IMG/VR virus record: IMGVR_UViG_2645727669_000018
Source of the DNA: a virus
Taxonomy: Duplodnaviria > Heunggongvirae > Uroviricota > Caudoviricetes
Strand: one strand, 5' to 3'
DNA length: 43,235 bases
The position numbers and the translations under genes are program-made. The notes under the pieces were generated by a model. The model was not told the DNA's origin, did not search any database, and saw nothing but the letters and a program-made list of their open reading frames with translations. This document shows positions 1 to 35,208 of the stretch, piece after piece (positions within the stretch are counted from its first letter, which is position 1; every line of letters begins with the position of its first letter).

Positions 1-1209
1 ATGTCGGTTTTTCATAACTGGCTGCTTGATATCGCAAGCGGGAATTACTTTATCTACATCAAACGCCTTTCTGCAAACGACACAGGCGCAACAGGTGGCC
101 ATCAGGTCGGACTTTATATCCCCTCAAATATCGTTGAAAAGCTTTTTCCATCTATCAATCATACTCGCGAACTGAACCCTTCAGTCTTCCTTACTGCGCA
201 TGTATCATCCCATGATTGCCCTGATACCCAAGCACGCGCAATTTATTACAACAACCGTTATTTTGGTAAGACCCGAAACGAAAAAAGAATTACGCGCTGG
301 GGGAGAGGAAGTCCATTACAGAACCCTGAAAATACAGGAGCCCTCACAATTCTTGCTTTCAGGTTAAACGAACAGAACACTGACTGTTCCGAGGTAGATA
401 TATGGGTCTGCGTCAATCCCGATGAAGAGGATATCATCGAGTCTGCTATTGGCGAAATCATACCTGGAACCCTAATTTCCGGCCCTGCCGGACAAATTTT
501 GGGCGGATTGTCTCTTCAGCAAACTCCAGTAAATCATAAATATGTTATTCCTGAAGACTGGAAGAAGCGTTTTCCTTCTGGAAACGAAATTATTCAATAT
601 GCTGCTGGCCATTATGCTAAAAACTCCAAGGATCCAGATGAGCAACTGATTGACCGTCGGCGTGTCGAGTATGATATTTTTCTACTCGTCGAGGAATTAC
701 ATGTTCTTGATATTATTAAGAAAGGATTCGATTCTGTAGATGAGTTTATTGCATTAGCCAACTCTGTCAGTAATCGACGTAAATCAAGGGCAGGTAAATC
801 ACTTGAACTTCACCTAGAGAAGCTTTTTATCGAGCACGGACTACGGCATTTCTCCACTCAGGCAGTTACTGAAGGTAATAAAAAACCAGATTTCCTGTTT
901 CCTTCAGCAGAGGCATATCATAACGTTGAATTTCCTGTAGAAAACTTACGTATGCTGGCAGTAAAGACCACCTGCAAAGATCGCTGGCGTCAGATACTGA
1001 ATGAAGCAGATAAAATCCATCAGGTACATTTATTTACGCTGCAAGAAGGTGTTTCTTCAGCACAATACCGGGAAATGAAAGATGCGGGTGTCAGACTCGT
1101 TGTACCATCAACTTTACATAAAAAATACCCAGAAGCAGTTAGAGAAGAATTAATAACGCTCGGAGCATTCATTACTGAGCTGATAGAACTTTACGCTGAA
1201 CTATCATAG
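1..1209 (+). CDS. ecoRIIR: Type IIE restriction endonuclease, EcoRII-like (CCWGG-type)
   Basis: 402-aa ORF beginning at window base 1; sequence recognised from memory as very close to EcoRII along its whole length (N-terminal effector domain plus C-terminal catalytic domain); convergent with a Dcm-type cytosine methyltransferase as in the EcoRII system. Not searched. Confidence 0.8.
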   Translation: MSVFHNWLLDIASGNYFIYIKRLSANDTGATGGHQVGLYIPSNIVEKLFPSINHTRELNPSVFLTAHVSSHDCPDTQARAIYYNNRYFGKTRNEKRITRWGRGSPLQNPENTGALTILAFRLNEQNTDCSEVDIWVCVNPDEEDIIESAIGEIIPGTLISGPAGQILGGLSLQQTPVNHKYVIPEDWKKRFPSGNEIIQYAAGHYAKNSKDPDEQLIDRRRVEYDIFLLVEELHVLDIIKKGFDSVDEFIALANSVSNRRKSRAGKSLELHLEKLFIEHGLRHFSTQAVTEGNKKPDFLFPSAEAYHNVEFPVENLRMLAVKTTCKDRWRQILNEADKIHQVHLFTLQEGVSSAQYREMKDAGVRLVVPSTLHKKYPEAVREELITLGAFITELIELYAELS

Positions 1210-1214
1210 GCTGA

Positions 1215-1237
1215 CTCCCGGCTTAAAAGGCCGGGAG
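1215..1237. terminator. Stem-loop between convergent R and M genes (possible bidirectional terminator)
   Basis: 8-bp inverted repeat ctcccggc/gccgggag with 7-nt loop in the 34-bp gap between the two stop codons; no clear T-tract. Confidence 0.35.
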
Positions 1238-1243
1238 GTGTTC

Positions 1244-2677
1244 TCAAGGCTGCCCAGTCTTACCAGCATCAGCAGAAACAGCTTTGAGGATATAGGGTTC
1301 CAGAAGTCTGGCAACGGCTTCAAATACTGGCACCACAACGGAGTTACCGAACTGCCGATATGACTGAGTATCTGAAACCGGAATACGGAATGGTTTCCCT
1401 CCAGGTTTTTCAAACCCCATAAGGCGTGCGCACTCTCGGGGAGTCAGCCTGCGTGGTCGACGAGCCTGGTTACTCTCATTCATAAAGTCAGCCTCTCCCG
1501 TTGCCATATCCCAACCACGATCAATAAGAATTTCTGATCCGTCTTTGTGATATCTGGCAGAAAGTGTGCGTGCAATGCTTTCCTTATTCTCAGGATTGAC
1601 CAACCCAAAGCCAAAACCATTCCCCTTGGCTGCATGCTTTTTGGCGTAGTTATAAAGGTACTCCCATAGTTTTGGCGTAAGTATATATTTACTGTCGACT
1701 ACAGGCTCCAGCAATTCACCAAATGATGGGCGGTGTTCCGGATAAAAACGACTGATATCACGCAAGGTAAACCCCTTGTGAATATTCAGATCTCGTCTAA
1801 ATCCGACCAGAACAATGCGTTCACGATGCTGAGGCAAAAAATGCTTCCCATCGATAATCTTTGGATCGTTTTTTCCCATTTCTGCAGCATCGGCAACTTC
1901 GTAGCCCAGCTCGTCAAGGGTCTCCATAATGACTTTGAAAGTTTTACCCTTATCATGGCTCTTCAGATTTTTGACATTTTCCAGCACAAAAATTGCCGGT
2001 TTTTTTGCTCGTATAATACGTGCCACGTCAAAAAAAAGTGTTCCTTGTGCTTCACATTCAAAACCATGCGCACGACCAAGTGAGTTTTTCTTACTAACAC
2101 CAGCAAGGCTAAATGGCTGGCACGGGAACCCCGCAAGAAGCACATCATGATCCGGCACATGCTCATCAATATATGCATAAGCATCCGTTTCCAATACATC
2201 GGTTTTATCACTCAGCGTGACTTCCCGAATATCGAGATTGAATTTATGCACCTGTTCATCGTTAAACCAGTTGGCCTTGTATGTACGCACAGCATCTTTA
2301 TTCCATTCACTGGTAAAAACACACTGGCCTCCAATGGCCTCAAAACCTTTCCGTATCCCTCCAATTCCAGCAAATAAGTCAATGAAGCGGAAAGCATATT
2401 CCGGATGGTTTGCAGGTGGTTCTGGTAGCATCTTACGCAGAAGAGACTCTTCTACTGAAGTCAACGATTTTGGTAAACACTTGCCATTAATCCAGCGGTT
2501 GATGGTTTCACGGCTCCACTCATTTTTTCCGACTTTTCTCAGTAATTCAGCCACATACTTCTGATCATAGATTTCCAGCACTTTCTCGATAAGCTTTTTA
2601 TCATTTTCCTGTCGCAGCTTTTCTTCCGCCTCGGCTTCCTTCAGCAGATGCTGTGCCAACACTTCAAATTCAGACAT
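1244..2677 (-). CDS. ecoRIIM: DNA (cytosine-5)-methyltransferase, M.EcoRII/Dcm-like
   Basis: C5-MTase motifs in translation: [10 protein letters not shown] (motif I), GFPCQPFS (catalytic Cys, motif IV), FVLENV (motif VI), QFGNSV (motif X). Start moved from ORF-track 2719 to ATG 2677, which has GGAGG 5 nt upstream and gives 477 aa. Confidence 0.9.
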
Positions 2678-2984
2678 AATTCCTCCAAGGGGTCTAATGG
2701 GTGAAACTCTATCACTCATTCAACCCAGAAGGAAATGTTTTATCTGGATATTTAAACAGTGACTACAACGTAATCTAGCACTGGTGATGCTTTGTTAGGC
2801 ATAGAGAATCATTCTATATACGACTAATGACAGAAAAACAGCAGACAAGTAGTTTGTTCATAAATTAACGCATACTACGTGCCTACGGTTTTCGAGACCG
2901 GTCCAATCATCAAACGAAACATAAAATTAGCTCACATTATGAGGAAAAGTATCTTTTTTGTACTATGTAAATTCAAAGGCTTAG

Positions 2985-3854
<870 letters not shown>

Positions 3855-3911
3855 GTCTTTAAGTGATAAGCATAAACCGCAGCACGATCTTGCATACGAC
3901 GTGCTACGGTT

Positions 3912-4466
3912 TCATTTATCTCCGACCGGAAACTTCTTATACAGTGTCGATATACCAACATCATAGATGATCGCCACCTTCTGGCGAGGAACGCCTGATG
4001 CAATTAATCGCCCGGCCTGCGCCCATTGTTCTGGTGTAAGTTTGGGACGACGTCCACCAATTCGTCCCTGTGCGCGAGCAGCTTCCAGTCCAGCTTTTGT
4101 TCGTTCAACAATCAGTTCTCGTTCCATTTCAGCCAGGGCACCCATCACATGAAAGAAAAAACGCCCCATCGGTGTGCTGGTATCAATAGCATCCGTCAGG
4201 CTGCGAAAATTAACGCCACGTTCGCGCAACTCCTCAACCAGAATGACCAGATGCCGCATACTACGCCCTAGCCGATCCAGCTTCCAGACAACCAGAGTGT
4301 CACCTGCCGATAATGTCCTGAGCAGTTTTTTCAATCCCGGCCTTTCGGACTTTGTACCGCTTATCTTGTCTTCAAAAATCAGCTCGCATCCTGCACAGTT
4401 CAGCGCATTACGTTGTAGATCTGTGTTCTGGTCATTTGTTGACACACGTACATAGCCAATAAGCAT
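3912..4466 (-). CDS. pin: Serine DNA invertase, Pin/Gin/Hin/Cin family
   Basis: MLIGYVRVSTNDQ...WKLDRLGRS serine-recombinase catalytic motifs and C-terminal HTH; 184 aa from ATG 4466 with GGGAG-type SD upstream; adjacent to an invertible tail-fibre segment. Confidence 0.9.
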   Translation of the reverse strand: MLIGYVRVSTNDQNTDLQRNALNCAGCELIFEDKISGTKSERPGLKKLLRTLSAGDTLVVWKLDRLGRSMRHLVILVEELRERGVNFRSLTDAIDTSTPMGRFFFHVMGALAEMERELIVERTKAGLEAARAQGRIGGRRPKLTPEQWAQAGRLIASGVPRQKVAIIYDVGISTLYKKFPVGDK

Positions 4467-4520
4467 GGTAGATCTCCCTGACAAAAGCAGGAATGATGCC
4501 ATTTGCTCGTTATTTCTGCA

Positions 4521-4546
4521 TTTTCATAAACGTTGGTTTGGGAGAA
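4521..4546. repeat. hix/gix-like 26-bp recombination site (invertase-proximal boundary)
   Basis: Reverse complement reads ttctcccaaaccaacgtttatgaaaa, resembling hixL TTCTTGAAAACCAAGGTTTTTGATAA (from memory); central AA dinucleotide; lies in a 31-bp perfect inverted repeat (4533-4563 vs 6035-6065). Confidence 0.65.
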
Positions 4547-4900
4547 GCGGCAAAACGGAATGTAGGTAACGAGCAAAACCAAATTCCGGATATGGCGGCG
4601 TTTGCCAGTTCACTTTCATCAACGGGGTTTCAAAAACTCCCTTCAGGTCTGATTATTCAGTGGGGTATTGTCAGTGGAGCATCAAACTATACGGTGACTT
4701 ACCCGGTAACATTCCCAAATCGTTCACTTGCGCTGTTGGCTGTGCCACATACAACGTCGGTGGCTGGTATATCTGCAATGGGCATAGCGAACTGTTCTGA
4801 TATCAGCAAATCACAGTTCTATATAATTGTTGGCGGTATATCTCAGGGAGAAATTGTCAAATATGAAAGGTCCTGTTTTTGGGTAGCAATCGGTGTATAG
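4534..4900 (+). other. Alternative tail-fibre C-terminal coding segment (currently unlinked orientation)
   Basis: Plus-strand ORF encodes [23 protein letters not shown]..., sharing the first 10 residues with the expressed fibre ([23 protein letters not shown]) and then diverging; lacks its own N-terminus. Confidence 0.65.
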
Positions 4901-4908
4901 GTATATCT

Positions 4909-5304
4909 ATGATTTATTTCTCAAAATCGACTAATGGTTTTTTCTTTGATGGTATAAACAGCGACATGCCTGCTGACATTGTTGAGATAAGTACAGACTT
5001 ATACAATGAATTAATTGCCGGACAGCAGGAAGGGGGGGAATTAATCACGTCAGATGAAAATGGTTTACCGGTACTGAAATCTCCGGCGATTGATTATGTC
5101 GCACGTGCTGAAAATCAGCGAATGCAGTTACTTGCTCATGCCGATAATGTCACAGCTGACTGGCGGGTGGAATTAATGCTTGGTGATATCAGCAGTACAG
5201 ATAAAGAAAAACTATCTGCCTGGATGGACTACAAAAAAGAAGTAAAAGCCGTCGACACTTCGACGGCTCCTGAGATTAGCTGGCCTGAGTTACCGGAGGT
5301 GTAG
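4909..5304 (+). CDS. Tail-fibre assembly protein (alternate orientation)
   Basis: 131 aa from ATG 4909; C-terminus ...[16 protein letters not shown] parallels the minus-strand Tfa C-terminus (...[14 protein letters not shown]); follows the alternative fibre segment. Confidence 0.7.
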   Translation: MIYFSKSTNGFFFDGINSDMPADIVEISTDLYNELIAGQQEGGELITSDENGLPVLKSPAIDYVARAENQRMQLLAHADNVTADWRVELMLGDISSTDKEKLSAWMDYKKEVKAVDTSTAPEISWPELPEV

Positions 5305-5695
5305 GCCATTCAATATCTGGCGCACCGGAAGTATCGACCAGTTCCAGTGCGTCCAGGTAATCCAGCCACAAATTATATTGTGCCAGTTCCTCACCTTTCA
5401 GCCGGCCAATAGCCGCTTTACCAGGCCATTGTTTACTGTTCATATAATCGTTGGCCTGTTCAATAAGTATATTTTTCATTCCCTCCGCTTCAGCTATTTC
5501 CTGTTCCTGTGTCTTCGCTGGATATTCAGTAAGTATAGGGTAGTTATCCGGGCTATTGATAATAATTTTCCCCGTACTCTGACCATTCATAAGTTCATAA
5601 TAAAGAGCATCTTCAATATCGAAAGCATCATCGGGAATATCGCTGTTGTTTTCAGAGAAAAATCCCTGAACAGATGGGGACCATTTCATTTTCAT
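5276..5695 (-). CDS. Tail-fibre assembly protein (expressed orientation)
   Basis: 139 aa; start overlaps the fibre stop (ATGA); Tfa-like conserved C-terminus; convergent with and overlapping the alternate tfa gene. Confidence 0.75.
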
Positions 5696-6354
5696 AATTT
5701 CCCAATTCCTAAAATATGGACATCATCAGCCTTACGGGCATTCCAGGTGACAATTACATCGGTAGAGTGACGATTAACTGAGATTGCGTATGCTTCGTTA
5801 GTCGAGCCAGAAACTTTTGTGGCAAACACAGCAAACAGGACACCAAATGACTGGGGCCATTTATAGCCTGACAGCTGATAATTACCATTATTCAGTGTTA
5901 CAGCTTTGGCTGCTGCACTTGATGGAATCGTCAGCCACTGGAGTATCAACCCTCCTGGCAAAAGTTGTTTTCCGTAATAATCCCTCACCCCACTAAATGA
6001 AACCATGTCCGGTATCTGATTTTCCCCTGTGCCCACATTCCGTTTTGCCGCTTCTCCCAAACCAAGGTTTTCGAGAGCCGTTTTCACCGTGCCATCCGAT
6101 TTGATATCGCTAAACGGATTCTTGCGGCTTAACAGCAGCGCACGAAGCGCGGTAAGCAGCTGGTCATGCCGCCCCTTCTCCAGGCTGGCACCGGATGCCT
6201 CCACCACGCTGCAGAGTTCTTCCTGCAACATATCAAAGTAGTCATCATCAAGATCGGTGGCAGGTGTGCCGGTCTGGGGGTTACCACGGGTAAAACCGTT
6301 TTTACCCGCGCCGAACTTATCCTTCTGCGCGGTTTTCGTGTCTATACGATGCAT
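5692..6354 (-). CDS. Side tail-fibre protein (constant N-terminus plus invertible C-terminus)
   Basis: 220-aa ORF spanning the recombination site at 6064/6065; N-terminal about 100 aa outside the segment, C-terminal about 120 aa inside; resembles e14/Mu-type short fibres (from memory). Confidence 0.75.
6052..6077. repeat. hix/gix-like 26-bp recombination site (fibre-proximal boundary)
   Basis: ttctcccaaaccaaggttttcgagag; core AAACCAAGGTTTT matches the hix consensus core (from memory); inverted relative to the site at 4521-4546. Confidence 0.65.
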
Positions 6355-6357
6355 GGA

Positions 6358-6942
6358 TTACTCCGGATATTTAAAAATTACGTAGGTATGCGACGGGCAG
6401 AGTTTGTTAAGCACACACTCGACAACGGTGTCGCCCCATATACGCAGCGCGGAATCACAGGGATCGCCACATGTCATCCAGGTGGTGTTGGTGGCGGCTG
6501 GCATGTTGATCTGCCAGTAATACCGCCATTCCGGCGCATTCACCTCGTCAGTACAGGCCGATGAGCAGGTGAAGGTGCTTTTGTCGTATCGCGTGATGGT
6601 GGCATCTGGCCTGCCCAGGGCAGCAAGCTGTGCAAGATAAAAATCCTCGTTGATGCCGCCCGCCAGGTTAACCTTCGCATCCAGCCGTTGCTGACGCTGG
6701 CGAAGGGTCTGCGCTCCCGCCGGAATACATTCATCCGGCAGACCGCACAGACGCTCCCAGCGGTTTATCAGTTCAGTGGTGGTGCGCGGATCCAGCTCCC
6801 GCATCAGGGCATCCGCACGCTGATGAACGCGGGTTAATGACGGTGCCGCACCGGCAATCGCCGGATCTCTGGCTGACCACGCCGGACCGGGTGGCAACAG
6901 TGCCGACAACAGACGGATGTAATCATCGTTTGTCACGTCCAT
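6358..6942 (-). CDS. Tail protein, YmfQ/DUF2313-like (Mu gp48 family)
   Basis: 194-aa ORF immediately upstream of the fibre gene; recalled similarity to e14 YmfQ; position matches Mu-like baseplate/fibre connector. Confidence 0.6.
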
Positions 6943-7991
6943 GAAATCGTCCCCAGAACCGCCAGTTCATTTTTCGCAATGGAGATATTGTCTGCCGGTG
7001 CAAGCAACTGATGGCTATATTCCCCGTTCGCACCGGAAATCGCCTCACTGATACGCGATACCTTCAGTTCTCCCTGCGGATAACCATCACGCAGAAGAAA
7101 CGAACGCAACTCCGCGGTGATGGCGGCTCGTATTTCTGGTGTGTCCGGCGTCACGCGGATATGAAAATCCACCGTATGTGCCACCGGCCTGAATACATAC
7201 AAATCAGAGCCTGCCACCGGGGCCAGTGGCACGATATGTTGTCTTGCTGCCGTTTCCGTTGATTCTTCCGGAATGGGATTAATCAGGTCACTGCTGGCAA
7301 TCATCACACCGACAGTTCCCGTTCCCATCCAGTGACGGTATGTCCATGCGCGGGTAATGCCGGGCACTTCTTTAGCCCAGACGACATAGTCCCCGTCAGC
7401 CCCGCCCTGAGGCGTCCAGTAATACCGCTCAATGACGCGGGCGCGCCACGTTTCCAGCTCTTCAGTATCAAATCCGCCTGTAAGGGTGTCAGCCACACCG
7501 GAAGACGGCAGACCATTCACCGGCGTGACCAGGATTAATGCCGTACCGTCGTCAGCGTTACCGACCGCACCTGCACTTGAGCAGGCGATCGGCACGCGCA
7601 GGACACCACCGGAGCTGGTTGCATCGGCAGTTGCCGTGTACTGAACCAGGTCATCGCGCTGAATAACACTCCCGGCGGTCACCTTCAGGCCATCGCTGAC
7701 ACCTTCCCAGCGCATATACCCGCTGGCAGCCGTGGCCCCCTTGCGCGGACACCGTTTCATCGCAGCATGTCGCGCCAGCCAGGACTCATCGCACAGGTCA
7801 GGCAGCATGTTCATTGCCAGATAATCGATGTAACCGTAAACCGTATGCAGCGCCGCCGCATACACCTTTGCCCGCACGTCTTCATCCATGCGCCGGAGCG
7901 TGTCGCTGACGTCCAGCCTGGCGAATAAATCGTTACGGAGCATACTGATATTTTCTGCCAGCGTCGGGCGCTGAAATTCACTGTCCGCCAT
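6933..7991 (-). CDS. Baseplate J-like protein (Mu gp47 family)
   Basis: 352 aa; size, position and family pattern typical of baseplate J proteins in Mu-like tail clusters; overlaps neighbours by a few nt (operon packing). Confidence 0.7.
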
Positions 7992-8406
7992 GCGTTATCG
8001 CACTCCACAGATCATCAAAAGAAATCATTACCGGTCCGTCACGACGCCAGAGAGTGATACTGTTACCCAGTTCATTAATCCCGGTGCGGCGGATATCCAG
8101 ATCAATACGGGACACCACGCCGTCATCAATCATCCATTGCAGGCATTCGCGGATATACCCCCTTACCGTCTGCACCAGCTGATTGGTCAGTTTGCTGCGC
8201 TGAAGCAGCCACAGTCGGGAGCCGTAACGGTCATTCTGTACCGCAGGCCAGGTATCCCCCCACCATCCCATCGGGACGTCGGCGTTGTCATCAGGCTCCG
8301 CCCGCCGCCAGGTAAACAGGGAAATCACCACGGCGCGGGTCAGCGGATCCAGTTGTGCGCTGGCGCAGGTGCGTTTACCGTTCACCGTCAGCCACAGTTC
8401 CATCAT
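7978..8406 (-). CDS. Baseplate protein, GP46 family
   Basis: 142 aa, between baseplate spike and baseplate J genes as in Mu-like clusters. Confidence 0.55.
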   Translation of the reverse strand: MMELWLTVNGKRTCASAQLDPLTRAVVISLFTWRRAEPDDNADVPMGWWGDTWPAVQNDRYGSRLWLLQRSKLTNQLVQTVRGYIRECLQWMIDDGVVSRIDLDIRRTGINELGNSITLWRRDGPVMISFDDLWSAITHGGQ

Positions 8407-24379: not shown

Positions 24380-25162
24380 TTATTTTTTCTTCTTATTTAA
24401 CTTATCTAAATTGACGGGATCTTTCCCTGTGGCAGCTAAACACCAAAAAGAATAACTCTTTTGCATGACATAGGTTCTAATTCTCTCTAATGTTTCATTA
24501 TATTTTTTCTCAACAACCTGTATCGCATGTTCAAATAAATTAATCATATCAACATGCTCGTCCTCGACACCAATCATGCTCAGTTGTTTTCTATCTGTCA
24601 CTGCTTGATAAAATGTTTTCCCATTTTTCCTTATTAGTAACAATGAAGTTTCTGCTGACTCATAGTCTTGGTTGCCGCTATGTGCTGCAAAATTATGCCT
24701 GTAGTTAATAATACAGTCATGCAACCCAAAATATTCAGAATCAAGCCAATCACGCTCCATCTTTAACTTTCTCCCTTTAGCTTCAGAGAAAGCTTTACCA
24801 TAAAACGTTAGGCTTGCCACAAATAACGCTCTAATTTCACTTGATAAATCTAGATCAAGTATATTCCCGTATAACTTGCCATCTGTCCTTAATTCGTTTC
24901 TCCCTGCCAGTTCATTAGCTATTTGGTACCACTCTTTAGCACTTTTTAAGTCCCTATGAATTAGGGACAGTGAAGATGCTCTATCGGCAATACGCCCACT
25001 CAATTTTATGCGATCTACAATTTCATTATTGAATGTATAAACCGCTTTAAATTCCCCCGTTTCGGAATCAATATAATATTCAACATCTAACCCTTCATAT
25101 GATTCACACCCGGGACCTTCTAATTTTTTTCTTTTCATATAGAATATCCATATACGTTTCAA
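24380..25162 (-). CDS. Hypothetical protein (AT-rich moron between Rz and HNH)
   Basis: 260-aa ORF (TTG at 25162; first ATG at 25138 gives 252 aa); Lys/Asn/Tyr-rich, visibly AT-rich; no recognisable motifs; own terminator. Confidence 0.6.
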   Translation of the reverse strand: MKRIWIFYMKRKKLEGPGCESYEGLDVEYYIDSETGEFKAVYTFNNEIVDRIKLSGRIADRASSLSLIHRDLKSAKEWYQIANELAGRNELRTDGKLYGNILDLDLSSEIRALFVASLTFYGKAFSEAKGRKLKMERDWLDSEYFGLHDCIINYRHNFAAHSGNQDYESAETSLLLIRKNGKTFYQAVTDRKQLSMIGVEDEHVDMINLFEHAIQVVEKKYNETLERIRTYVMQKSYSFWCLAATGKDPVNLDKLNKKKK

Positions 25163-25219
25163 TTCTCAGTCAGCATAGTAGAAAAAAAAGATGTCCAGAT
25201 CCATACATCGAAAGCAATT

Positions 25220-25684
25220 TTATTTTTCACACTGACTAGAGATATAGTCCTGCAATGCTCTTATCTGTTTATAACTGATTTCAATTCTCTCTCTGAGGGT
25301 GAAATAATCCCGTTGAGCGGTGTCAGTAAGTCGGGGGGCGGTAGCATCATCCAGGCTGGTGGTAATGGTCGTTGATTGCACTCTCGGGCAACTAGCGGCG
25401 AGGAACAGCCGCTTAGTGCCAACAGCAACATCACGCTGAAGCTGTTCAATAGTTGCTTTAGCATTTGCAAGTTCTCCGGTGTATTTCGCATCGAGCGCAG
25501 AAACATCACGCTGGCGCTGCTGCATCTCAGTAATGGTGGCGTTCGCCTGGCTGAGTTTTTCCTTCGCTTTATCGCGCTGTTCTTTGTAGGCGATGGCGTT
25601 ATCACGATAATGATTAACAGCCCATGATAGGCAGACGATGGTGCAGATAACCAGAGAGGACAGAATCGCAGTTACTCTACTCAT
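25220..25684 (-). CDS. Rz: i-spanin Rz
   Basis: From internal ATG: [30 protein letters not shown]..., close to lambda Rz (from memory); contains embedded Rz1 in +1 frame. Confidence 0.9.
25261..25464 (-). CDS. Rz1: o-spanin Rz1 (embedded in Rz)
   Basis: 67 aa: MLKQLL...LLALSGCSS (lipobox LSGC) then Pro-rich [22 protein letters not shown], as lambda Rz1. Confidence 0.8.
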
Positions 25685-26159
25685 ATAGCTGAATTTCTCT
25701 GACCGCTCCGCCCGATTCTTTGAATTTTTCAATCAGGCTGTCAACCTTATGTTCGAACTGACCATAACCAGCGCCCGGCAATGACGCCCAGATATTGCTG
25801 CAACGATCAATAGCCTGACGGATATCGCCGCGATCAATCATCGGTAAAGCACCACGCTCTTTAATCTGCTGCAATGCCACAGCATCCTGGCTTTTTGGAG
25901 AGAAGTCTTTCAGCCCAAGCTGCTTACGGTAAGCATCCCACCAGCGTGAAAGAAGCTGATAACGTCCTGCGGCTGTTGATTTAAGTTTCGGGTTTAGCGT
26001 GACAAGTTTGCGAGGGTGATCGGAGTAATCAGTGAACAGTTCACCTCCGACAATAACGTCATAACCGTGGTTACGTGTCGGTTGTCGCCCGTTATCCGTT
26101 CCTTCTGACCATGCCACCATATCGAGGAAAGCTTTACGCTGGGAATTTAGTACCTGCAT
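25677..26159 (-). CDS. R: Endolysin, lambda R-like lytic transglycosylase
   Basis: 160 aa nearly identical over long stretches to lambda R as recalled ([43 protein letters not shown]...). Confidence 0.9.
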
Positions 26160-26162
26160 AAA

Positions 26163-26489
26163 TTACTCCTTAGAGCCACCAAACTTATTACCGATTACTC
26201 TCATTGCAGCCCCACGAATAGCATCGACCCCGATCAGCCCAACGCCGCCACCAATGGCAACAGAAAGAGATTTAGGCCATCCGACATACTCAAGAGCGGA
26301 TGCAAAAGTCAGCGTCAGAGCACCACAGAGCAAAATCTCGAGCGTTTTTCGTTTCCAGCCACCACCACCGCCAAAATAGGCAATGCGCAAGCCAGCCATA
26401 ACGATCGACATAATCACTGCGCCCAGCGGTGTGTCTCCACGCCACCAGCTCTGGACCAACTCCAGCCAGGTATTTGGGTTATGAGGCAT
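26163..26489 (-). CDS. Holin
   Basis: 108 aa with three hydrophobic helices and charged C-terminus, immediately upstream of endolysin. Confidence 0.7.
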   Translation of the reverse strand: MPHNPNTWLELVQSWWRGDTPLGAVIMSIVMAGLRIAYFGGGGGWKRKTLEILLCGALTLTFASALEYVGWPKSLSVAIGGGVGLIGVDAIRGAAMRVIGNKFGGSKE

Positions 26490-26627
26490 TTGTAGTTATC
26501 TCTCACCTCGCTGATACAGCAGGTGCAAATTGAGGGAACATCATGTACCGCAAATCAGAAGCGGAAACATCAAAGAAGCCGAACCGATGGAGAACTGCGG
26601 AATAGGCCAGGACCAACGAATCCCCAG

Positions 26628-26665
26628 CCACAGAAACGACAAAACCCGCTCGACGGCGGGTTTAA
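26628..26665 (-). terminator. tR'-like intrinsic terminator upstream of the lysis genes
   Basis: Minus-strand RNA aaacccgc-cgucga-gcggguuu followed by UGUCGUUUCUG; 8-bp GC stem; about 140 nt upstream of holin start. Confidence 0.55.
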
Positions 26666-26695
26666 GCTGTGTGGCGAAGTAACCACTCTTAACAG

Positions 26696-26724
26696 ATTAC
26701 AATGTTTTTTGCGGACCGCGCTAA
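26696..26724 (-). promoter_or_regulatory. Candidate late promoter (PR'-like)
   Basis: Minus strand TTAGCG - 17 nt - TGTAAT just upstream of the tR'-like hairpin; weak -35. Confidence 0.25.
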
Positions 26725-26785
26725 TGATTTCCTCTTTTTTTTGTTGTATTTTTCACACGGTTGCTAAAATTATTTCGGATCGATA

Positions 26786-27727
26786 ATGAGTACAGAAAAT
26801 AAGAATAAAACCAGGCGAGTGAGAGTTGGTTTTTTCACTGGTAATGGAAGCAAAAAAGATGGCACATCTGCTGCAAAACTAGCCTTTGAGCAAATGACCA
26901 CAGCAGATACTGTAACTTTTCCAATAACTTACACAACAGACACCCCAAGTCGAGGGTTAAAGTTAGTTATTCTTCAAAAAGATACCACACTGCAATGTTA
27001 CTTTGGTTACGTATCGTGGAGAAGGGAATGCCTACTACCGTTCATCGAGGATGCTACAGGTAGTGAGAGAACAATTCCTTTAAATGATAAAGATTCTGTA
27101 GTTGAAAGAACATATTTTATCTATTACTACGAAACGGACTTATTAGCTATGACCCTCAACCATATAGGGCCCAAAGTAAATGATCTGGCATTCATTTTGT
27201 ATAACAAAACTGATTTAAAAAGCGTCACTTTTGAAGCCATTTGGAAACAAGAGAGCATGAAGGAACTGCTTGAGGACGGAAATATCCTACGTAGTTTCGA
27301 TCTTATAGTTGCTGCTCCAAGAAACTTTAACAAAGCTAATTATAAGATTAAAAACCCTTTAGCTAATGAAATTATTGACATGGTTGTTGGTATGGGCGGG
27401 TCGCATCTAAGATTAAATATGCGAGGTCGGATTCGCCCGAAAAAACAAGGGTTTAACTATCTAAAAACTTCTGTCACCGATGCTATTAAGGAACTACTTG
27501 AACTTTTTCCAAAAGGTTCTGGAGGTCTAAAAATTAAAAAAATTGATGTAACAGAGCCATCCAATAGAACGCCCAAAAGTCTACTTGACCAAGTATTGGT
27601 CAGTACAAAGACAATCATTGTCAAAAGCGGTTATCCATCCGATTCTGATATCAGAACGGCGATGATATCTGCTAAAATTGATAACGCGAACTATCTTGCA
27701 CAGTATGAGCTCGCTAGCAGAGACTAA
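26786..27727 (+). CDS. Hypothetical protein, first gene of a two-gene Q-S cassette
   Basis: 313 aa, AT-rich, on the strand opposite to the late genes; no recognisable motifs; stop 21 nt before the partner gene start. Confidence 0.7.
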   Translation: MSTENKNKTRRVRVGFFTGNGSKKDGTSAAKLAFEQMTTADTVTFPITYTTDTPSRGLKLVILQKDTTLQCYFGYVSWRRECLLPFIEDATGSERTIPLNDKDSVVERTYFIYYYETDLLAMTLNHIGPKVNDLAFILYNKTDLKSVTFEAIWKQESMKELLEDGNILRSFDLIVAAPRNFNKANYKIKNPLANEIIDMVVGMGGSHLRLNMRGRIRPKKQGFNYLKTSVTDAIKELLELFPKGSGGLKIKKIDVTEPSNRTPKSLLDQVLVSTKTIIVKSGYPSDSDIRTAMISAKIDNANYLAQYELASRD

Positions 27728-27748
27728 TAACCAAGCATGGAGGACACA

Positions 27749-28198
27749 ATGAGAGAATTAGCCACTTTTCTCTGGAAATGCGTCCTCTGGATTCTGTTGA
27801 CCTATGCAGCGACAAAACTGTTTAAACCGATGAAGCATGCTGACGTACTCACAACAGCGGGGGTGCTCTCGACTATATCAGGCATCCTGTTTGGTTTTGT
27901 TCTGGCTGCAATATCTATATTTAGTAGTGCAAACAGCGATAAGGAAGGAGCAATTAATGCCCTTAAGCAAAACAACGTGTTACCAACTCTGGTAAATAGA
28001 TTACTTTCAACAGGGTTAACTCTCATCGTCGCATGTATATTTCCATTGATAGCGATGTTTCTACCTGATGATGTTATTGTTGCGGGCAAACCTATTGATT
28101 TCCTGTTCATACTGTTAGGCTTATCCTCCCTTATAATTTCGCTATATACCTTCGGAAGGTGTTGGTTAGTGTTACGAAAAATCTTCCCCCACTTGTGA
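27749..28198 (+). CDS. Small polytopic membrane protein, second gene of Q-S cassette
   Basis: 149 aa from ATG 27749 (GGAGG 5 nt upstream; ORF track starts at 27737); about four hydrophobic helices. Confidence 0.7.
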   Translation: MRELATFLWKCVLWILLTYAATKLFKPMKHADVLTTAGVLSTISGILFGFVLAAISIFSSANSDKEGAINALKQNNVLPTLVNRLLSTGLTLIVACIFPLIAMFLPDDVIVAGKPIDFLFILLGLSSLIISLYTFGRCWLVLRKIFPHL

Positions 28199-28226
28199 CA
28201 GGTTGGCCTCATATGGGGCCAACCTG
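28199..28226. terminator. Stem-loop between cassette and convergent Q gene
   Basis: 10-bp perfect inverted repeat caggttggcc/ggccaacctg with 8-nt loop, right after the cassette stop. Confidence 0.45.
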
Positions 28227-28233
28227 TGCAACC

Positions 28234-28602
28234 CTAAGCGTCCATTTCAAGGTTAAAATCCAACATTGAAAGGCAACCATCAATAAATCCTTCGGCTAGT
28301 TGTATTTCTATGCGTACCAATTTTTCATCCTTTCCACGCACCTTTGCAATCTTACGCTTGGATATTCTGTATAAATAATGTGCCACAAGCAGCGAGTGCT
28401 CATCTGGCTTTTTTTGCTTTAGACGAGCAAGACAACCTTCAATAATTAATGCATCACTATCTGAACAAGCCTGACGTGTTTTGCTTGTGTAGGGAAGAAG
28501 CCCCTTAAACCCAGCAGCTATAGGCGAATAGTCTACTCCAGAACTATCACTCGCCGCCCATGCTCCCCAACGCTCCAGAACCATCTGAATATCACGCATC
28601 AA
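28234..28602 (-). CDS. Late-gene antiterminator Q (small Q family)
   Basis: 122 aa, MMRDIQMVLERWGAWAA... recalled as the N-terminus of lambdoid prophage Q proteins; sits upstream of the lysis cassette. Confidence 0.7.
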   Translation of the reverse strand: MMRDIQMVLERWGAWAASDSSGVDYSPIAAGFKGLLPYTSKTRQACSDSDALIIEGCLARLKQKKPDEHSLLVAHYLYRISKRKIAKVRGKDEKLVRIEIQLAEGFIDGCLSMLDFNLEMDA

Positions 28603-28616
28603 CTTTCTCCACCAAA

Positions 28617-29612
28617 TCAGGCCAACACCCCAATCGCCAGCGCGCGATCGATAAAACGAAATATCAGCTCCAGTTGGGAGCCATACTTCTCTTCAAATGC
28701 CACGGTATCCGCATGCAGCTCGTCGTGATGCTTTCTGCACAAAGGCAACACAAAGAGGTCATGCGCTTTTGTACCCATTCCACCCTGACCGTGACCTATC
28801 AGGTGGTGGGGATCATCAGCAGGCTTTCCACAACATGCACACGGCTGTGTCTTAACCCAGCGCGTGTACTTTTCATTAACCCAGCGGCGGCGTTTTGGGC
28901 GTAACATAAAAGACTCCAGCGACTCCGGATCCACTTTCAGCGCCAGCACCTTTTTCGCTTTATCCTGGATAATGCTGGTGGCAGGAACCGAAGGCACAAG
29001 GTCACTTTCCCGGGTGACCGCCTGCACAACAGGCTTCGGTAATCTCAGTGCCTTACGGGCTGCACTTTCCGGTAAGGCATCCGCCAGGTCATTACGAATC
29101 AGCCACCAGCACAGTTCCGGTATTGTCACAACGTGACTATCATCAAAACCGAGATCCCGACGCACAACAGACAACACCCAGCGGGCACAGTTATCCGTTG
29201 CCATTGATTCCAGCCGTTCCGTGAACTGATCGCGCAGCTGGTTATCGCAGTGCCAGCACAAACGGATTGCGCCCGGAGCGTGTCGCATTGTTGTCATGTT
29301 CTCGCTGTGCCAGTCGGAATGAGGCCACTGGCAGCCTTTTTCACGAAGTAACCAGCTTTCAAGACATTCCACGCCACCAGCACGACGGATCACTGCCTCA
29401 TTGCGGAACACGGCCCGAACGGCAGGATCATCCGCCAGCGGTTGTGATGCCGCCGGAACGGCACCACTGGCGAAAGATGAATAACGTTCCGGCTCAGGCT
29501 CCAGCAGGACACGCCCCTGCATAAACAGGGGCATCAACTCTGAACCTGGCCTGAACAATACGATCCCCATACGCGGGGCAATTTCAGGGGTCAGTAGTGC
29601 TCTCACGGTCAC
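28617..29612 (-). CDS. DUF968-family phage protein (YdfU-like)
   Basis: 331 aa with C-terminal Cys/His cluster (CACCGKP...HHLIGHG...CRKHHDELH); found in nin-like regions of lambdoid prophages. Confidence 0.6.
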   Translation of the reverse strand: MTVRALLTPEIAPRMGIVLFRPGSELMPLFMQGRVLLEPEPERYSSFASGAVPAASQPLADDPAVRAVFRNEAVIRRAGGVECLESWLLREKGCQWPHSDWHSENMTTMRHAPGAIRLCWHCDNQLRDQFTERLESMATDNCARWVLSVVRRDLGFDDSHVVTIPELCWWLIRNDLADALPESAARKALRLPKPVVQAVTRESDLVPSVPATSIIQDKAKKVLALKVDPESLESFMLRPKRRRWVNEKYTRWVKTQPCACCGKPADDPHHLIGHGQGGMGTKAHDLFVLPLCRKHHDELHADTVAFEEKYGSQLELIFRFIDRALAIGVLA

Positions 29613-29613
29613 C

Positions 29614-30411
29614 TCAATGAACGGTATCGAGCAGCTTTAACAGCTCAGAGAATCGGGATTCGAAGAAATGCGGCTGCGTCTCGCGCGGATTTGCGGGACT
29701 GGTGATGTTCTTGCCGAACATGCAGCCTTTCGCTGTCAGCGACCAGAATTTTTTGATGTTGTTAATCGCGGTACGGCTGTATCGTTCGCGCTGCTCGACG
29801 ATCCCCAGCTTCACCATCTGGTGATATGCCTGATTAGCCGTCAGGCGGATACCATACTGTTTCAGCAGTGCACTCAGTGACAGCGTAGGGCGACTTGAGC
29901 CATCGTGTGCATCAGCAGGAGCATCAATGGCATAGCGCGGTGCCAGATTCGGTAAGCCAACAGCCTCCTGAAGTTTCTGACAGGCTCCAAGCACTGAAGA
30001 GTTAGACAGATTTAACTCCCGGCGCATAAAGTCCAGCAGAATCACGCCAGCCTGCATCTTGTCAGCAGCCTGTCCGGATAATTTTTCAGGTGCGCTGGTT
30101 ACCATGTCGAAAGTACGGATCACCTTCAGATGGAATGACGGGCTGATCCACATTGCATAGGCATACACCAGTTCTTTGCAGACATACGTCCCCTGGTTAT
30201 TTCCACCACGAATAACGTTAACTGGCTCTATATTGACCGAGTTGCAAATCTGCAACTCGCTTATTAAACGTTCAGTTTGCTCATTGCGGAGCCAGAATGC
30301 AGGCTTATGCTTATCCAGAGAACCGGCAGCCCTGTGCAGATCGTTCAGGCTGTAACGCCCATAAGCATCACGACGAACTTCAATACCATCAATGACCATC
30401 AGATTATTCAT
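29614..30411 (-). CDS. KilA-N domain protein
   Basis: N-terminal MVIDGIEVRRDAYGRYSLNDLHRAAG...FWLRNEQT pattern typical of KilA-N domains. Confidence 0.65.
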   Translation of the reverse strand: MNNLMVIDGIEVRRDAYGRYSLNDLHRAAGSLDKHKPAFWLRNEQTERLISELQICNSVNIEPVNVIRGGNNQGTYVCKELVYAYAMWISPSFHLKVIRTFDMVTSAPEKLSGQAADKMQAGVILLDFMRRELNLSNSSVLGACQKLQEAVGLPNLAPRYAIDAPADAHDGSSRPTLSLSALLKQYGIRLTANQAYHQMVKLGIVEQRERYSRTAINNIKKFWSLTAKGCMFGKNITSPANPRETQPHFFESRFSELLKLLDTVH

Positions 30412-30430
30412 ACTTCGTTTCTCCTCTTAA

Positions 30431-30820
30431 TCAGGCGGCTGCACCCGCCGGTTTCTCGTACTTACTGATAGCGATCTCGACCTTCCCTTCCGGGATAACC
30501 GGTCCCCACTCCACCAGCATTCTTTTCACCTGACTGTCGTCTTCCCACACACCCGCGTGGGTCAGGGCGTCAAACAGCGCCTTGTTATAGTTGTCCAGAT
30601 CGCGGATCCGGTTATCCGGAGGAAACAACACGATCTCCACTGAAGCAGGTGCCGACGTTGGTTTCGGCAGACGACGTAACTGCTCAACTATTGCTGCGCA
30701 CGCCGCGCTCTGGAATTTTCGCCCCGCCGCGCTTATCAGGCTCTTACCAGCAAACGCCCCTTTGTTGGGGTGTCGCCAGTACGTGTTCACGCTGGGCGGA
30801 AAAGGCAGGATCAGCTTCAT
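30431..30820 (-). CDS. rusA: Holliday junction resolvase RusA
   Basis: 129 aa; LPFPPSVN..YWR N-terminus and DLDNY.KA.FDALT acidic catalytic motif. Confidence 0.8.
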   Translation of the reverse strand: MKLILPFPPSVNTYWRHPNKGAFAGKSLISAAGRKFQSAACAAIVEQLRRLPKPTSAPASVEIVLFPPDNRIRDLDNYNKALFDALTHAGVWEDDSQVKRMLVEWGPVIPEGKVEIAISKYEKPAGAAA

Positions 30821-31143
30821 GCTTTCAGGCCTCTCTCATGTAACCAGTGGGTTGCACGCAGCCTTGCGTTTTCCTCACCGGCAAGCAGTGAGCGGATAAT
30901 CCCGACCGCCTCGCTGTCGTCGTCCTTCACCGCGGTATGAAGCGTTATCCCCCGGGCCACGCCACGCTTTATCGTGATGACGCCTTTTTTCTCCAGTGCG
31001 CGAAGATGCTCCACCGCTGCATTCACTGAACGGTATCCCAGCATGGTTGCCACCTCCTGATTGGTTGGCGGGAAGCCACGTTCTTTCTGGTAAGAAATCA
31101 GCATATCCAGCACCTGCTGCTGGCATTGAGTTAATGTCGTCAT
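30817..31143 (-). CDS. LexA-like winged-helix DNA-binding protein
   Basis: 108 aa; N-terminal LTQCQQQVLDMLISYQKERGFPPTNQEVATMLGYRSVNAAVEHLRALEKKGVI resembles the LexA DNA-binding domain; no peptidase domain. Confidence 0.55.
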   Translation of the reverse strand: MTTLTQCQQQVLDMLISYQKERGFPPTNQEVATMLGYRSVNAAVEHLRALEKKGVITIKRGVARGITLHTAVKDDDSEAVGIIRSLLAGEENARLRATHWLHERGLKA

Positions 31144-31793
31144 GCCGCCATCTCCCTGACCAGTTTTTCTGCCTGCTGGCGAACCTGCGCCAGAAACGCC
31201 TCACCACATGCCTCAAGTTCATCGCGCCCGATGTAGCTGATTGCCGGTCCCTTCCAGGTCTTGTCGAAAACAGCAATAGCACCAGCGAAGAAAGCGCCTG
31301 TCGGCACCTGCTTCTCATCTTTCGGGATAAACCAGGCAGGCAGTTCAAAACCAATACGCCCGCGAATAAAAGCAATATGATCTGCATCTTCCGGCCACCA
31401 CACTTCGCTGGTGGCAGCTTTGATCAGGAAAACATAGCGCCCGCCTTTATCACGCATGGCACTGGCATGTTTCATGATGTAACGCATGCCGGTGATGTAT
31501 TGCCCCTCATGCTGACTGGCGCGGCTGTATGGGGGATTACCAAAGGCAGCACCTTTAAGCTCCGCAAGACGTTCTGACCAGTCATGCGCCAGCGCATTGT
31601 CTTCCGCCGTGTAATACGCGGTACATTTGGCGTTATCACCGTCAGTAAACAGATCCAGAACAAACGGGCCAAACAGAGTGTTAATTCCCCAGAAAATGTT
31701 ATCCGGCGTGCGCCACTGATCGCCCACTTCCTTCAGTTCATGGGCTGGTTTGTTCCGTAGTTCCACCAGCGCCTGGCAATATTTATTACTCAT
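31140..31793 (-). CDS. Phage-type DNA N6-adenine methyltransferase (orphan)
   Basis: NPPY catalytic motif (FGNPPYSR); 217 aa from ATG 31793, which overlaps the upstream stop (TAATG). Confidence 0.8.
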   Translation of the reverse strand: MSNKYCQALVELRNKPAHELKEVGDQWRTPDNIFWGINTLFGPFVLDLFTDGDNAKCTAYYTAEDNALAHDWSERLAELKGAAFGNPPYSRASQHEGQYITGMRYIMKHASAMRDKGGRYVFLIKAATSEVWWPEDADHIAFIRGRIGFELPAWFIPKDEKQVPTGAFFAGAIAVFDKTWKGPAISYIGRDELEACGEAFLAQVRQQAEKLVREMAA

Positions 31794-32287
31794 TAAGCCC
31801 CCACGTAATTCCCTGACAGATACCACTCATCACTCGATACAGCGCGCTTGCTGCTTTTCCGTAAACACTGCTCACGACGCGCCAGAAAATTGTTTCGTTC
31901 TGGCTGGGAGTGGCTTTCACGGAATGCCGCCATCCACACCGTTGCAGCACGACGGTATAAGCCCCTGGACTCCAGTTCTTCCGCCTGGCGGGTCAGGCAC
32001 AAAATCTCCCGCGGGTCGTTAGTGCCGACATAGAAATTGCGCACAGGTCTGGTTTCACGAACTGGTTGCGGTTCCGCCTCCTGCGCTCTCTCAGTCAGGC
32101 GCGGGAAATGTCTGCGTGTATCCCCTTCACAACGGTGAGCCACACGACCACTCTGACGTAACTTGCTTGCTGACTGCAGAACGCGCTGCCGTGAGTAACC
32201 TGCAAAAGCATCCGCAATGTCTCCGGAAGTACACCCCGGATGGGCTTCAATGTATTTCTGAACTTCATTCAAAAGACTCATGATCAC
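31793..32287 (-). CDS. Hypothetical protein (possible small regulator)
   Basis: 164 aa, Arg-rich; ATGA overlap with O-like gene stop; weak recollection of PerC/ANR-like regulators. Confidence 0.45.
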   Translation of the reverse strand: MIMSLLNEVQKYIEAHPGCTSGDIADAFAGYSRQRVLQSASKLRQSGRVAHRCEGDTRRHFPRLTERAQEAEPQPVRETRPVRNFYVGTNDPREILCLTRQAEELESRGLYRRAATVWMAAFRESHSQPERNNFLARREQCLRKSSKRAVSSDEWYLSGNYVGA

Positions 32288-35164: not shown

Positions 35165-35183
35165 CCTCAATATCCCATCCATC

Positions 35184-35208
35184 GGCCACCGAAAGGTGGC
35201 TTTTTATT
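35184..35208 (+). terminator. Rho-independent terminator after cI
   Basis: ggccacc-gaaa-ggtggc followed by ttttt, 20 nt after the cI stop. Confidence 0.65.

Follow-up and report, generated by a model that had tools for sequence, protein, structure and literature searches.

A pin gene and a P-type invertible segment with alternative tail-fibre cassettes in an e14-family prophage

The window, by which we mean the whole 43,235-nucleotide stretch of viral DNA that was analysed, contains a locus that is almost certainly the Pin/P-segment DNA inversion switch of an e14-family prophage, and the prophage itself is full length and lambdoid, with a Mu-like contractile tail. The mechanism is already known from textbook accounts of e14, Mu, and P1, and RefSeq labels the gene pinE in near-identical loci. 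As a discovery the locus matters little, because it belongs to the textbook Pin/Gin/Cin/Hin mechanism. Its practical value is that of a clean and apparently intact e14 switch in a complete prophage, whereas the e14 of K-12 is defective. The role of the P segment in host range was never testable in K-12, and phage induced from a comparable strain could allow the test.

Invertase and recombination sites

The recombinase gene, the two recombination sites, and the arms of the inverted repeat are located as follows.

3912-4466, minus strand: pin, encoding a 184-amino-acid serine DNA invertase orthologous to PinE (Pfam, PHROG, and Gin structure matches)
4521-4546, minus strand: left 26-bp recombination site, equal to e14 pixR; minus-strand reading TTCTCCCAAACC AA CGTTTATGAAAA, crossover dinucleotide at 4533-4534
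4533-4563: left arm of a perfect 31-bp inverted repeat, sequence TTGGTTTGGGAGAAGCGGCAAAACGGAATGT (direct comparison)
6035-6065: right arm of the perfect 31-bp inverted repeat, the reverse complement of TTGGTTTGGGAGAAGCGGCAAAACGGAATGT
6052-6077, plus strand: right 26-bp recombination site, equal to e14 pixL; TTCTCCCAAACC AA GGTTTTCGAGAG, crossover dinucleotide at 6064-6065

The pin open reading frame was listed as 3912-4502, and the conserved start, MLIGYVRVS, lies at 4466. The encoded protein contains a Pfam Resolvase domain at residues 3 to 135 (E 9e-52) and an HTH_7 domain at residues 138 to 180 (E 5e-13), matches PHROG 125, "DNA invertase" (E 6e-97), and aligns end to end with the Gin structures 3UJ3 and 4M6F (E 1e-93). 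Amino acid identity was 95.1% to K-12 PinE, 80.4% to P1 Cin, and 76.6% to Mu Gin. Moreover, Pin has the build of the Din family, which comprises a length of roughly 185 to 190 residues, an N-terminal resolvase domain, a C-terminal helix-turn-helix, and a serine at position 9 or 10, here Ser9. Neither Pin nor the fibre and chaperone proteins described below reached the cut-off of any NCBIfam model. We conclude that the gene encodes a Pin-type invertase, as originally predicted, and that the identity to PinE and the match to the Gin structure 3UJ3 place it firmly.

Fis-dependent invertases uniquely conserve residues equivalent to Q151, R154, and L155 of Hin, together with basic residues at positions 47, 48, and 51 (PMC3798978). 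The Pin counterparts of these Fis- and enhancer-contacting residues, namely, Q150, R153, L154, K46, K47, and R50, are all conserved, and Pin also has R42. Between the pin start codon and the centre of the left site there are 67 bp, and transcription of pin is directed away from the segment. The stretch upstream of pin contained no match in a scan for sigma-70 promoters, and the total number of sites was not above that in shuffled sequences; therefore, we claim no promoter for pin.

The perfect 31-bp inverted repeats were found at exactly the coordinates predicted for them, and the longest repeat in 200 mononucleotide shuffles of positions 3000 to 8000 was only 20 bp. A repeat search extended the pair to 68 nucleotides with 84% complementarity (4528-4595 and 6003-6070). 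The left and right 26-bp sites match pixR and pixL, respectively, at 26 of 26 bases each when compared with the published sequences (PMC3241671, Table 3), are also identical in the K-12 genome sequence, and both carry a central AA. The sites had been predicted to resemble hix and gix; the identity goes beyond resemblance, and the alignment with pix is perfect. The prediction had also placed the repeats inside the sites. Both sites are present with their central AA, but the repeats overlap the sites and are not nested within them: each repeat combines the core dinucleotide and the 12-bp inner half-site with 17 bp that extend further into the segment, and the outer half-sites of the left and right sites are unlike each other.

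The invertible segment measures approximately 1,531 to 1,533 bp. A third pix-like site, as might indicate a multi-segment shufflon of the p15B Min kind, was absent from the 43-kb window, in which there were just two exact matches, and matches with three mismatches occurred at chance level. We conclude that the segment is bounded by the two pix sites of e14.

A candidate Fis enhancer within pin

One further feature was sought within the invertase gene, in the 5′ part of which a Fis-binding enhancer had been anticipated.

4377-4448, no strand assigned: homologue of the recombinational (Fis) enhancer, nucleotides 19 to 90 of pin (homology to the P1 cin annotation and synonymous conservation)

The P1 record NC_005856 labels nucleotides 19 to 90 of cin as "enhancer of Cin-mediated C-segment inversion," and the equivalent stretch of pin is identical to that of cin at 55 of 72 positions and to that of K-12 pinE at 70 of 72. 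A synonymous-site test that took in 75 unique invertase genes gave a synonymous-codon identity of 0.59 for codons 7 to 30 versus 0.38 for codons 31 to 135 (Mann-Whitney p 3e-5). Synonymous conservation at the 5′ end of a gene can also reflect constraint on translation initiation, but conservation here peaked at nucleotides 27 to 36 and 75 to 90, as two blocks about 49 bp apart, and the two-peak pattern speaks against that explanation.

Two candidate 15-bp Fis cores of the form G-N13-C lie within the enhancer homologue, at 4431-4445 (GTGTCAACAAATGAC) and 4382-4396 (GTGCAGGATGCGAGC), and their centres are 49 bp apart, which departs from the 48-bp spacing of the Fis sites of the Hin system. The left crossover and the centre of the proximal candidate core are separated by about 96 bp, comparable to the distance of roughly 100 bp given for hixL (PMC3798978). 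The distal candidate core has a G+C-rich centre and is a poor fit to the Fis motif, which is described as A/T-rich (PMC4784862). A plain scan with the Fis consensus (GNNYRWWWWWYRNNC, up to two mismatches) yielded ambiguous matches 60 bp apart, and the synonymous-site test was used in its place. We infer that pin probably retains the predicted enhancer, given the homology to P1 cin and the constraint across relatives, and that Fis may bind there, with the distal core as the weaker part of the case.

Fibre cassettes and their two orientations

The genes within and adjoining the segment are as follows.

4535-4900, plus strand: Sv′, silent alternative fibre C-terminus, 121 amino acids (Pfam Gp53-like_C, E 1.7e-15; PHROG tail-fibre families)
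4909-5304, plus strand: tfa′, alternative tail-fibre assembly chaperone, 131 amino acids (Pfam Caudo_TAP, E 3e-24; PHROG 188, E 8e-41)
5244-5271, minus strand: terminator-like hairpin with a 12-pair stem and a T run, just 3′ of the expressed tfa (consensus scan alone)
5276-5695, minus strand: tfa, tail-fibre assembly chaperone of the expressed cassette, 139 amino acids (Pfam Caudo_TAP, E 3e-22)
5692-6354, minus strand: expressed tail fibre, 220 amino acids (open reading frame; PHROG tail-fibre families, E 1e-63)
5692-6065, minus strand: Sv, variable C-terminal part of the fibre, about 123 amino acids, within the segment
6066-6354, minus strand: Sc, constant N-terminal part of the fibre, about 97 amino acids, outside the segment

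The layout is that of a tail-fibre switch, with a constant N-terminus outside the segment and two opposed cassettes inside it, each consisting of a fibre C-terminus and a chaperone gene. The segment had been predicted to carry a fibre C-terminus and assembly gene on the minus strand and alternatives to both on the plus strand, and the open reading frames and the fibre and Caudo_TAP matches agree with that content. The chaperone of the expressed cassette is 49% identical to TfaP of K-12, and the convergent tfa and tfa′ genes overlap by 29 bp at the 3′ end of tfa. PGAP-style calling lengthens the Sv′ open reading frame to an ATG at 4493, which is outside the segment.

The left repeat arm at 4533-4563 codes for an 11-residue peptide in the fibre reading frame. 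The same repeat-coded peptide is present in both cassettes, and therefore either cassette joins the constant 97-residue N-terminus in frame, as read from the sequence of the junctions. A local alignment of Sv and Sv′ covers only 56 columns, 32 of them identical, and is confined to the conserved junction region. With in-frame fusion to either cassette, a lysogen population would be expected to release virions with two different receptor-binding tips.

Both orientations of the locus occur in nature. The Escherichia coli strains DAM and ANT come from Lebanese seawater, are near-isogenic (genomes of 4,603,072 and 4,603,065 bp, respectively), and carry a locus 98% identical to the window. The two are identical to each other over 8.9 kb apart from one exact inversion, and all 27 possible breakpoint pairs fall within the repeats, at the window equivalents of 4533-4559 and 6039-6065. 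RefSeq annotates a fibre of 220 amino acids in DAM and one of 218 amino acids in the inverted ANT, the C-terminus of which is Sv′. A second pair, Cartapus and FDAARGOS_1372, gave the same picture, and in P2-like prophages the segment is found both ways round. Moreover, the K-12 P segment has been inverted experimentally at the same repeat (PMC4272514, PMC12529663). A locus fixed in a single orientation, the outcome that the original prediction had set against itself, is thus not what was found at the 98%-identical locus of DAM and ANT.

We propose the following course for inversion. Pin dimers would bind the two 26-bp pix sites in inverted orientation, host Fis would bind two enhancer sites in pin codons 7 to 30, about 96 to 145 bp from the left site, and the three DNA segments would come together on supercoiled DNA as an invertasome. 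Each Pin subunit would then use its Ser9 to cut at the central AA/TT (4533-4534 and 6064-6065), one pair of Pin subunits would rotate by 180 degrees, and religation of the ends would leave the 1,531-bp segment inverted. Expression of the constant fibre N-terminus would come from the upstream late tail operon, on the ymfQ side, such that Sc, Sv, and tfa would be expressed together in the present orientation and Sc, Sv′, and tfa′ in the other.

One way in which strains could come to differ in orientation is by RecA-dependent homologous recombination at the 31- to 68-bp repeats instead of by Pin. The breakpoints can be placed only somewhere in an identical stretch of 26 to 31 bp, and thus a crossover at the AA core is indistinguishable from one elsewhere in the repeat. 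We nonetheless give this explanation hardly any credence, as stretches of 26 to 31 bp are at or below the length of an efficient RecA substrate and assemblies break right at the site in 21 of 73 related loci of other genera, a pattern that suggests frequent switching. It is also very improbable that Pin no longer inverts the segment and that the repeats are kept just for the conserved fibre motif. Many fibres do conserve the repeat-coded motif, among them SfV-type fibres without an invertase-gene match. Against such a relic, however, stand a full-length Pin with all catalytic and Fis-contact residues, two sites that are identical to functional pix sites, the non-coding outer half-site on the left included, and the two orientations among near-isogenic strains.

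Alternatively, the main selected role of the switch could be host defence, in which case inversion would change the C-terminus joined to a pin-proximal leader open reading frame, and the product would block other phages. Inversion of the K-12 P segment is reported to yield StfE2 and to confer protection against T2 (PMC12529663), the in-frame ATG leader of K-12 is retained in the window (ATG 4493, MMPFARYFCIFINV...), and the switch adjoins defence-type genes, namely, an EcoRII restriction-modification system and a GIY-YIG protein. We consider this role unlikely. The leader ATG is present in just 8 of 36 related loci and is missing from Mu, and therefore it is not a feature of the family. As read from the sequence, an AGGA abuts the first leader ATG and lies 3 nucleotides before the second, which is poor spacing, and the cassettes of the window show no relationship to the C-terminus of K-12 StfP, which is reported to act on T2. 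Moreover, the complement of head, tail, and lysis genes is complete in this prophage, unlike in K-12 e14, and thus the classical function in the virion is available to it. We favour a Pin-driven switch of the virion tail fibre.

Related switches and possible exchange of segments

The locus is most readily compared with e14 of K-12, which has the same gene order (ymfQ, fibre, tfa, tfa′, Sv′, pin) and the same 29-bp tfa overlap. Fibre residues 1 to 109 are identical to those of K-12 StfP at 103 of 109 positions, and YmfQ is identical at 187 of 194. In contrast, the fibre C-terminus is unrelated to that of StfP, both fibre C-termini being other alleles than those of K-12, and the alignable part of the segment is a stretch of about 175 bp at the 3′ end of tfa with 81% identity. 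The P segment of K-12 (pinE, stfP-tfaP / tfaE-stfE) is 1,797 bp long, compared to 1,531 bp here; e14 is defective whereas the present prophage is full length; and mcrA, which lies beside pin in K-12, is replaced by the EcoRII restriction-modification system and the GIY-YIG gene.

The Gin/G system of Mu resembles the locus in that the invertase gene adjoins the segment and points away from it, both start codons lying 67 bp downstream of the centre of the site, and in that Sc lies outside the segment with Sv-U and U′-Sv′ inside. The tail module of the present prophage is likewise Mu-like (Gp48/YmfQ, baseplate J). Mu differs in having GA instead of AA as the gix core, a G segment of about 3 kb, a fibre of 488 rather than 220 amino acids, and no pin-proximal ATG leader. 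The Cin/C system of P1 shares the AA core and the enhancer at nucleotides 19 to 90 of the invertase gene, as annotated in NC_005856, but its 4.2-kb C segment is located on the 3′ side of cin, the end of which overlaps cixL. In consequence, about 0.5 kb separates the P1 enhancer from the nearest site.

A near-identical segment was found in prophages of another kind. The P2-like phage Cartapus and a prophage of E. coli LF82 carry a 1,533-bp segment that is 99.0% identical to that of the window and occurs in both orientations in nature. Cartapus differs, however, in that it belongs to the Peduoviridae, its invertase gene is 81.6% identical, and the constant part of its fibre is a 473-amino-acid P2 gpH-type protein without DNA similarity. 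Identity between Cartapus and the window breaks at most a few bases away from the crossover points. Conversely, in the R12 prophage pin is 99.5% identical and 16 kb of early genes match at 100%, yet the segment is unrelated. A segment that is 99% identical beside an invertase gene that is only about 82% identical suggests that whole segments are swapped at the sites, and such invertible segments may pass between unrelated prophages as cassettes bounded exactly by recombination sites. The mosaic would then be a sharp example of trade in fibre tips between Mu-tailed lambdoid and P2-like prophages. Cross-reacting Din invertases, as opposed to homologous recombination in the 30- to 70-bp junction motif, might catalyse such swapping between co-resident prophages, a possibility that we regard as doubtful.

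The Pin invertase, its sites and a candidate enhancer

The switch is the e14 Pin system itself, already known from E. coli K-12: sites are identical, the recombinase is 95% identical and gene order is the same, whereas the fibre-tip alleles differ from those of K-12. RefSeq and phage Cartapus already contain annotated copies of the window's alleles.

3912-4466, minus strand: pin, serine invertase of 184 amino acids, conserved start MLIGYVRVS
4521-4546: left 26-bp site, TTTTCATAAACG TT GGTTTGGGAGAA (reverse complement TTCTCCCAAACC AA CGTTTATGAAAA)
6052-6077: right 26-bp site, TTCTCCCAAACC AA GGTTTTCGAGAG
4533-4563: left arm of a perfect 31-bp inverted repeat, TTGGTTTGGGAGAAGCGGCAAAACGGAATGT; reverse complement at 6035-6065

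The original prediction of a Pin-type invertase was borne out. Pin has Pfam Resolvase and HTH_7 domains, matches PHROG 125 ("DNA invertase"), is 95.1% identical to K-12 PinE, 80.4% to P1 Cin and 76.6% to Mu Gin, and can be aligned over its whole length with the crystal structure of Mu Gin (3UJ3, E 1e-93). Moreover, Pin retains counterparts of Hin residues Q151, R154 and L155 and of basic residues 47, 48 and 51, which are reported to be conserved only in Fis-dependent invertases (PMC3798978).

Sequence comparison placed the perfect 31-bp repeats exactly where they had been predicted, and the longest inverted repeat among 200 shuffles of window 3000-8000 was 20 bp. With mismatches allowed, the repeat grows to 68 nt at 84% complementarity (4528-4595 / 6003-6070). 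The repeats had been described as lying inside the 26-bp sites, a wording that needs correction: each arm takes in the 2-bp core, the adjoining inner half-site and 17 more bases of the segment, and leaves out the outer half-site, which is not the same at the two sites. The predicted central AA was read from both sites, and their assignment to the hix/gix kind was upheld by alignment, as the right site is identical at 26/26 positions to the e14 site pixL (TTCTCCCAAACC AA GGTTTTCGAGAG) and the left site likewise to pixR (TTCTCCCAAACC AA CGTTTATGAAAA) (Table 3, PMC3241671). Direct reading of the K-12 MG1655 sequence gave these same two sequences. A scan of the whole 43-kb window for sites of the pix type returned none beyond these two. 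In 73 related loci of other Enterobacterales, the invertase start codon is preceded by a dix-type site at a distance of 58-129 bp, most often 67 or 78 bp; the window has 67 bp.

An enhancer had been proposed for the 5′ part of the invertase gene. Nucleotides 19-90 of P1 cin are annotated as the enhancer of C-segment inversion in the curated P1 record, and the same nucleotides of pin (window 4377-4448) are identical at 55/72 positions to P1 and at 70/72 to K-12 pinE. Because protein conservation confounds DNA identity, synonymous-codon identity was computed over 75 unique invertase genes; it was 0.59 in codons 7-30 versus 0.38 in codons 31-135 (Mann-Whitney p 3e-5), and codons 7-30 ranked third among 112 equally sized sliding windows. 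Conservation peaks twice, at third positions of nt 27-36 and of nt 75-90, and each peak contains a candidate Fis core of the form G-N13-C.

4431-4445: candidate proximal Fis core, 15-mer, GTGTCAACAAATGAC
4382-4396: candidate distal Fis core, 15-mer, GTGCAGGATGCGAGC

The two cores are centred 49 bp apart. From the left crossover to the centre of the proximal core the distance is ~96 bp, similar to the spacing of roughly 100 bp reported for hixL and its proximal Fis site (PMC3798978). Fis sites do not typically have a G+C-rich centre like that of the distal core. We infer that Fis binds this homologue of the P1 enhancer.

Fibre cassettes

5692-6354, minus strand: expressed tail fibre, 220 amino acids (PHROG match)
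5276-5695, minus strand: tail-fibre chaperone gene, next after the fibre (Caudo_TAP)
5244-5271: terminator-like hairpin after that chaperone gene
4535-4900, plus strand: alternative fibre C-terminus (Pfam Gp53-like_C)
4909-5304, plus strand: second chaperone gene (Caudo_TAP)

Open reading frames, Pfam and PHROG agree with the predicted layout, in which the segment carries the expressed fibre C-terminus and its assembly gene on the minus strand and an alternative pair on the plus strand. Fibre residues 1-109 are identical to K-12 StfP at 103/109 positions, and the C-terminus is unrelated to both K-12 cassettes. The chaperone genes converge with a 29-bp overlap (5276-5304), the same as tfaP/tfaE in K-12. 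The repeat encodes the same 11-residue peptide in both cassettes, and thus crossover at the central dinucleotide preserves the reading frame.

Upstream of the fibre lie ymfQ (Mu Gp48 family) and the remaining genes of a Mu-like contractile tail module, among them baseplate J, gp46 and gpV; beyond this module come genes for an HK97-type head and for lysis, and lambdoid early genes. With this full gene set, the element is related to the K-12 prophage e14 but is full-length, where e14 is defective. A near-identical prophage in E. coli R12 is inserted beside ssrA.

Natural inversion and its proposed mechanism

Two queries were run against complete E. coli genomes, the window sequence as it stands and the same sequence with 4533-6065 inverted in silico. 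The first matched strain DAM in one piece (100% coverage, 97.9% identity), and the second matched strain ANT with an equal score. DAM and ANT both come from Lebanese seawater; their chromosomes measure 4,603,072 and 4,603,065 bp, and their 8.9-kb loci are identical but for one exact inversion. All 27 of 27 breakpoint pairs that convert one locus into the other fall inside the repeat (window-equivalent 4533-4559 / 6039-6065), and the RefSeq fibres, of 220 amino acids in DAM and 218 in ANT, share an N-terminus. A second, independent pair in opposite orientations is formed by phage Cartapus (with strain LF82) and strain FDAARGOS_1372. Occurrence of a single orientation in deep read data had been named as grounds for rejecting the switch; both orientations were found among these related loci. 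The anatomy of the switch, the sequence identities and the natural inversions between related loci are direct observations.

In 21/73 related Enterobacterales loci the contig ends ~63-204 bp upstream of the invertase start (most at 63-130 bp), at or beside the invertase-proximal recombination site (including L012, L014, L015, L017, L024, L026, L028, L035, L036, L039, L040, L043, L054, L060, L062, L066, L069 and L072-L074). Since mixed orientations in a sequenced culture would give such assembly breaks, this suggests active switching in many genera.

In K-12, both orientations coexist in clonal cultures (PMC4272514), and inversion at the same repeat depends on PinE and PinQ (PMC12529663). RecA-mediated inversion between the repeats is a weak explanation, as in pinE mutants of K-12 the segment stays in one orientation (PMC12529663). 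The locus is also a poor candidate for a frozen relic that has lost inversion, with Pin and both sites intact. A defence role via the pin-proximal leader ORF (4493-4900), as claimed for K-12 StfE2, is likewise weakly placed: its leader ATG is absent in Mu and occurs in just 8/36 related loci, and the window cassettes are unlike the tip of K-12 StfP, for which an action on T2 is reported. The in-frame ATG leader itself (MMPFARYFCIFINV, 4493-4534), which bears on the StfE2 phage-defence claim (PMC12529663), lies on the pin side outside the segment, and its reading frame continues across the left site into the cassette that happens to face pin; its K-12 counterpart is near-identical (MMPFACYFFIFINV).

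The classical invertasome account is the best supported. Pin dimers would bind pixL and pixR, Fis would bind the candidate enhancer within pin, and in the resulting invertasome Ser9 would cut at the AA/TT cores, with rotation of subunits before the ends are rejoined. This would flip the segment, and the late tail operon would read the constant fibre N-terminus (Sc) with either tip and its chaperone, as Sc-Sv-tfa or Sc-Sv'-tfa'. We infer cleavage chemistry, Fis dependence and an effect on host range from other members of the invertase family.

Histories of segment, flanks and prophage ends

Judged by sequence similarity, the invertible segment and its flanks differ in history. Window 4533-6070 was compared with Cartapus (L087) and FDAARGOS_1372 (L088). 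The P2-like (Peduoviridae) phage Cartapus shares 99.0% identity with the window over the 1,533-bp segment, but just 81.6% in the invertase gene and no DNA similarity in the constant part of the fibre. The R12 prophage (NZ_CP066740.1), by contrast, is 99.5% identical in pin, 97.1% in Sc plus ymfQ and 100.0% over the 16,107-bp early/regulatory/integrase region (window 25001-41107), and its segment interior is unrelated save for a 179-bp tfa 3′ stretch. Homology stops within a few bases of the crossover points. Segments have evidently been swapped as units at the recombination sites, and the route may have been homologous recombination in the conserved junction motif or the invertases themselves.

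The R12 cassettes (L006 16492-18684) contain three truncated tfa pseudogene fragments, and the 179-bp stretch occurs there in both orientations. As the tfa 3′ region (5280-5458) is the sole part of the segment interior still alignable to K-12 (81%) and R12 (93%), recombination at this internal point could shuffle half-cassettes.

Three defence-type genes open the window (1-3854), before pin, at the prophage end.

1-1209, plus strand: EcoRII-type endonuclease (EcoRII-N and EcoRII-C domains)
1244-2719, minus strand: C5 cytosine methyltransferase, completing an EcoRII-type restriction-modification pair
3081-3854, plus strand: LEM-3-like GIY-YIG protein

In K-12 e14, mcrA occupies the position of this EcoRII/GIY-YIG block, and in R12 the block adjoins ssrA; the position appears to be a slot in which defence genes vary. 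Neither tRNA nor tmRNA genes were detected anywhere in the window. The last ~2.1 kb (41108-43235) fall outside the otherwise identical R12 match and are covered piecewise by strain GN4143, with AAA ATPase, integrase and IS3 annotations; they probably represent the opposite boundary of the prophage or a neighbouring island.
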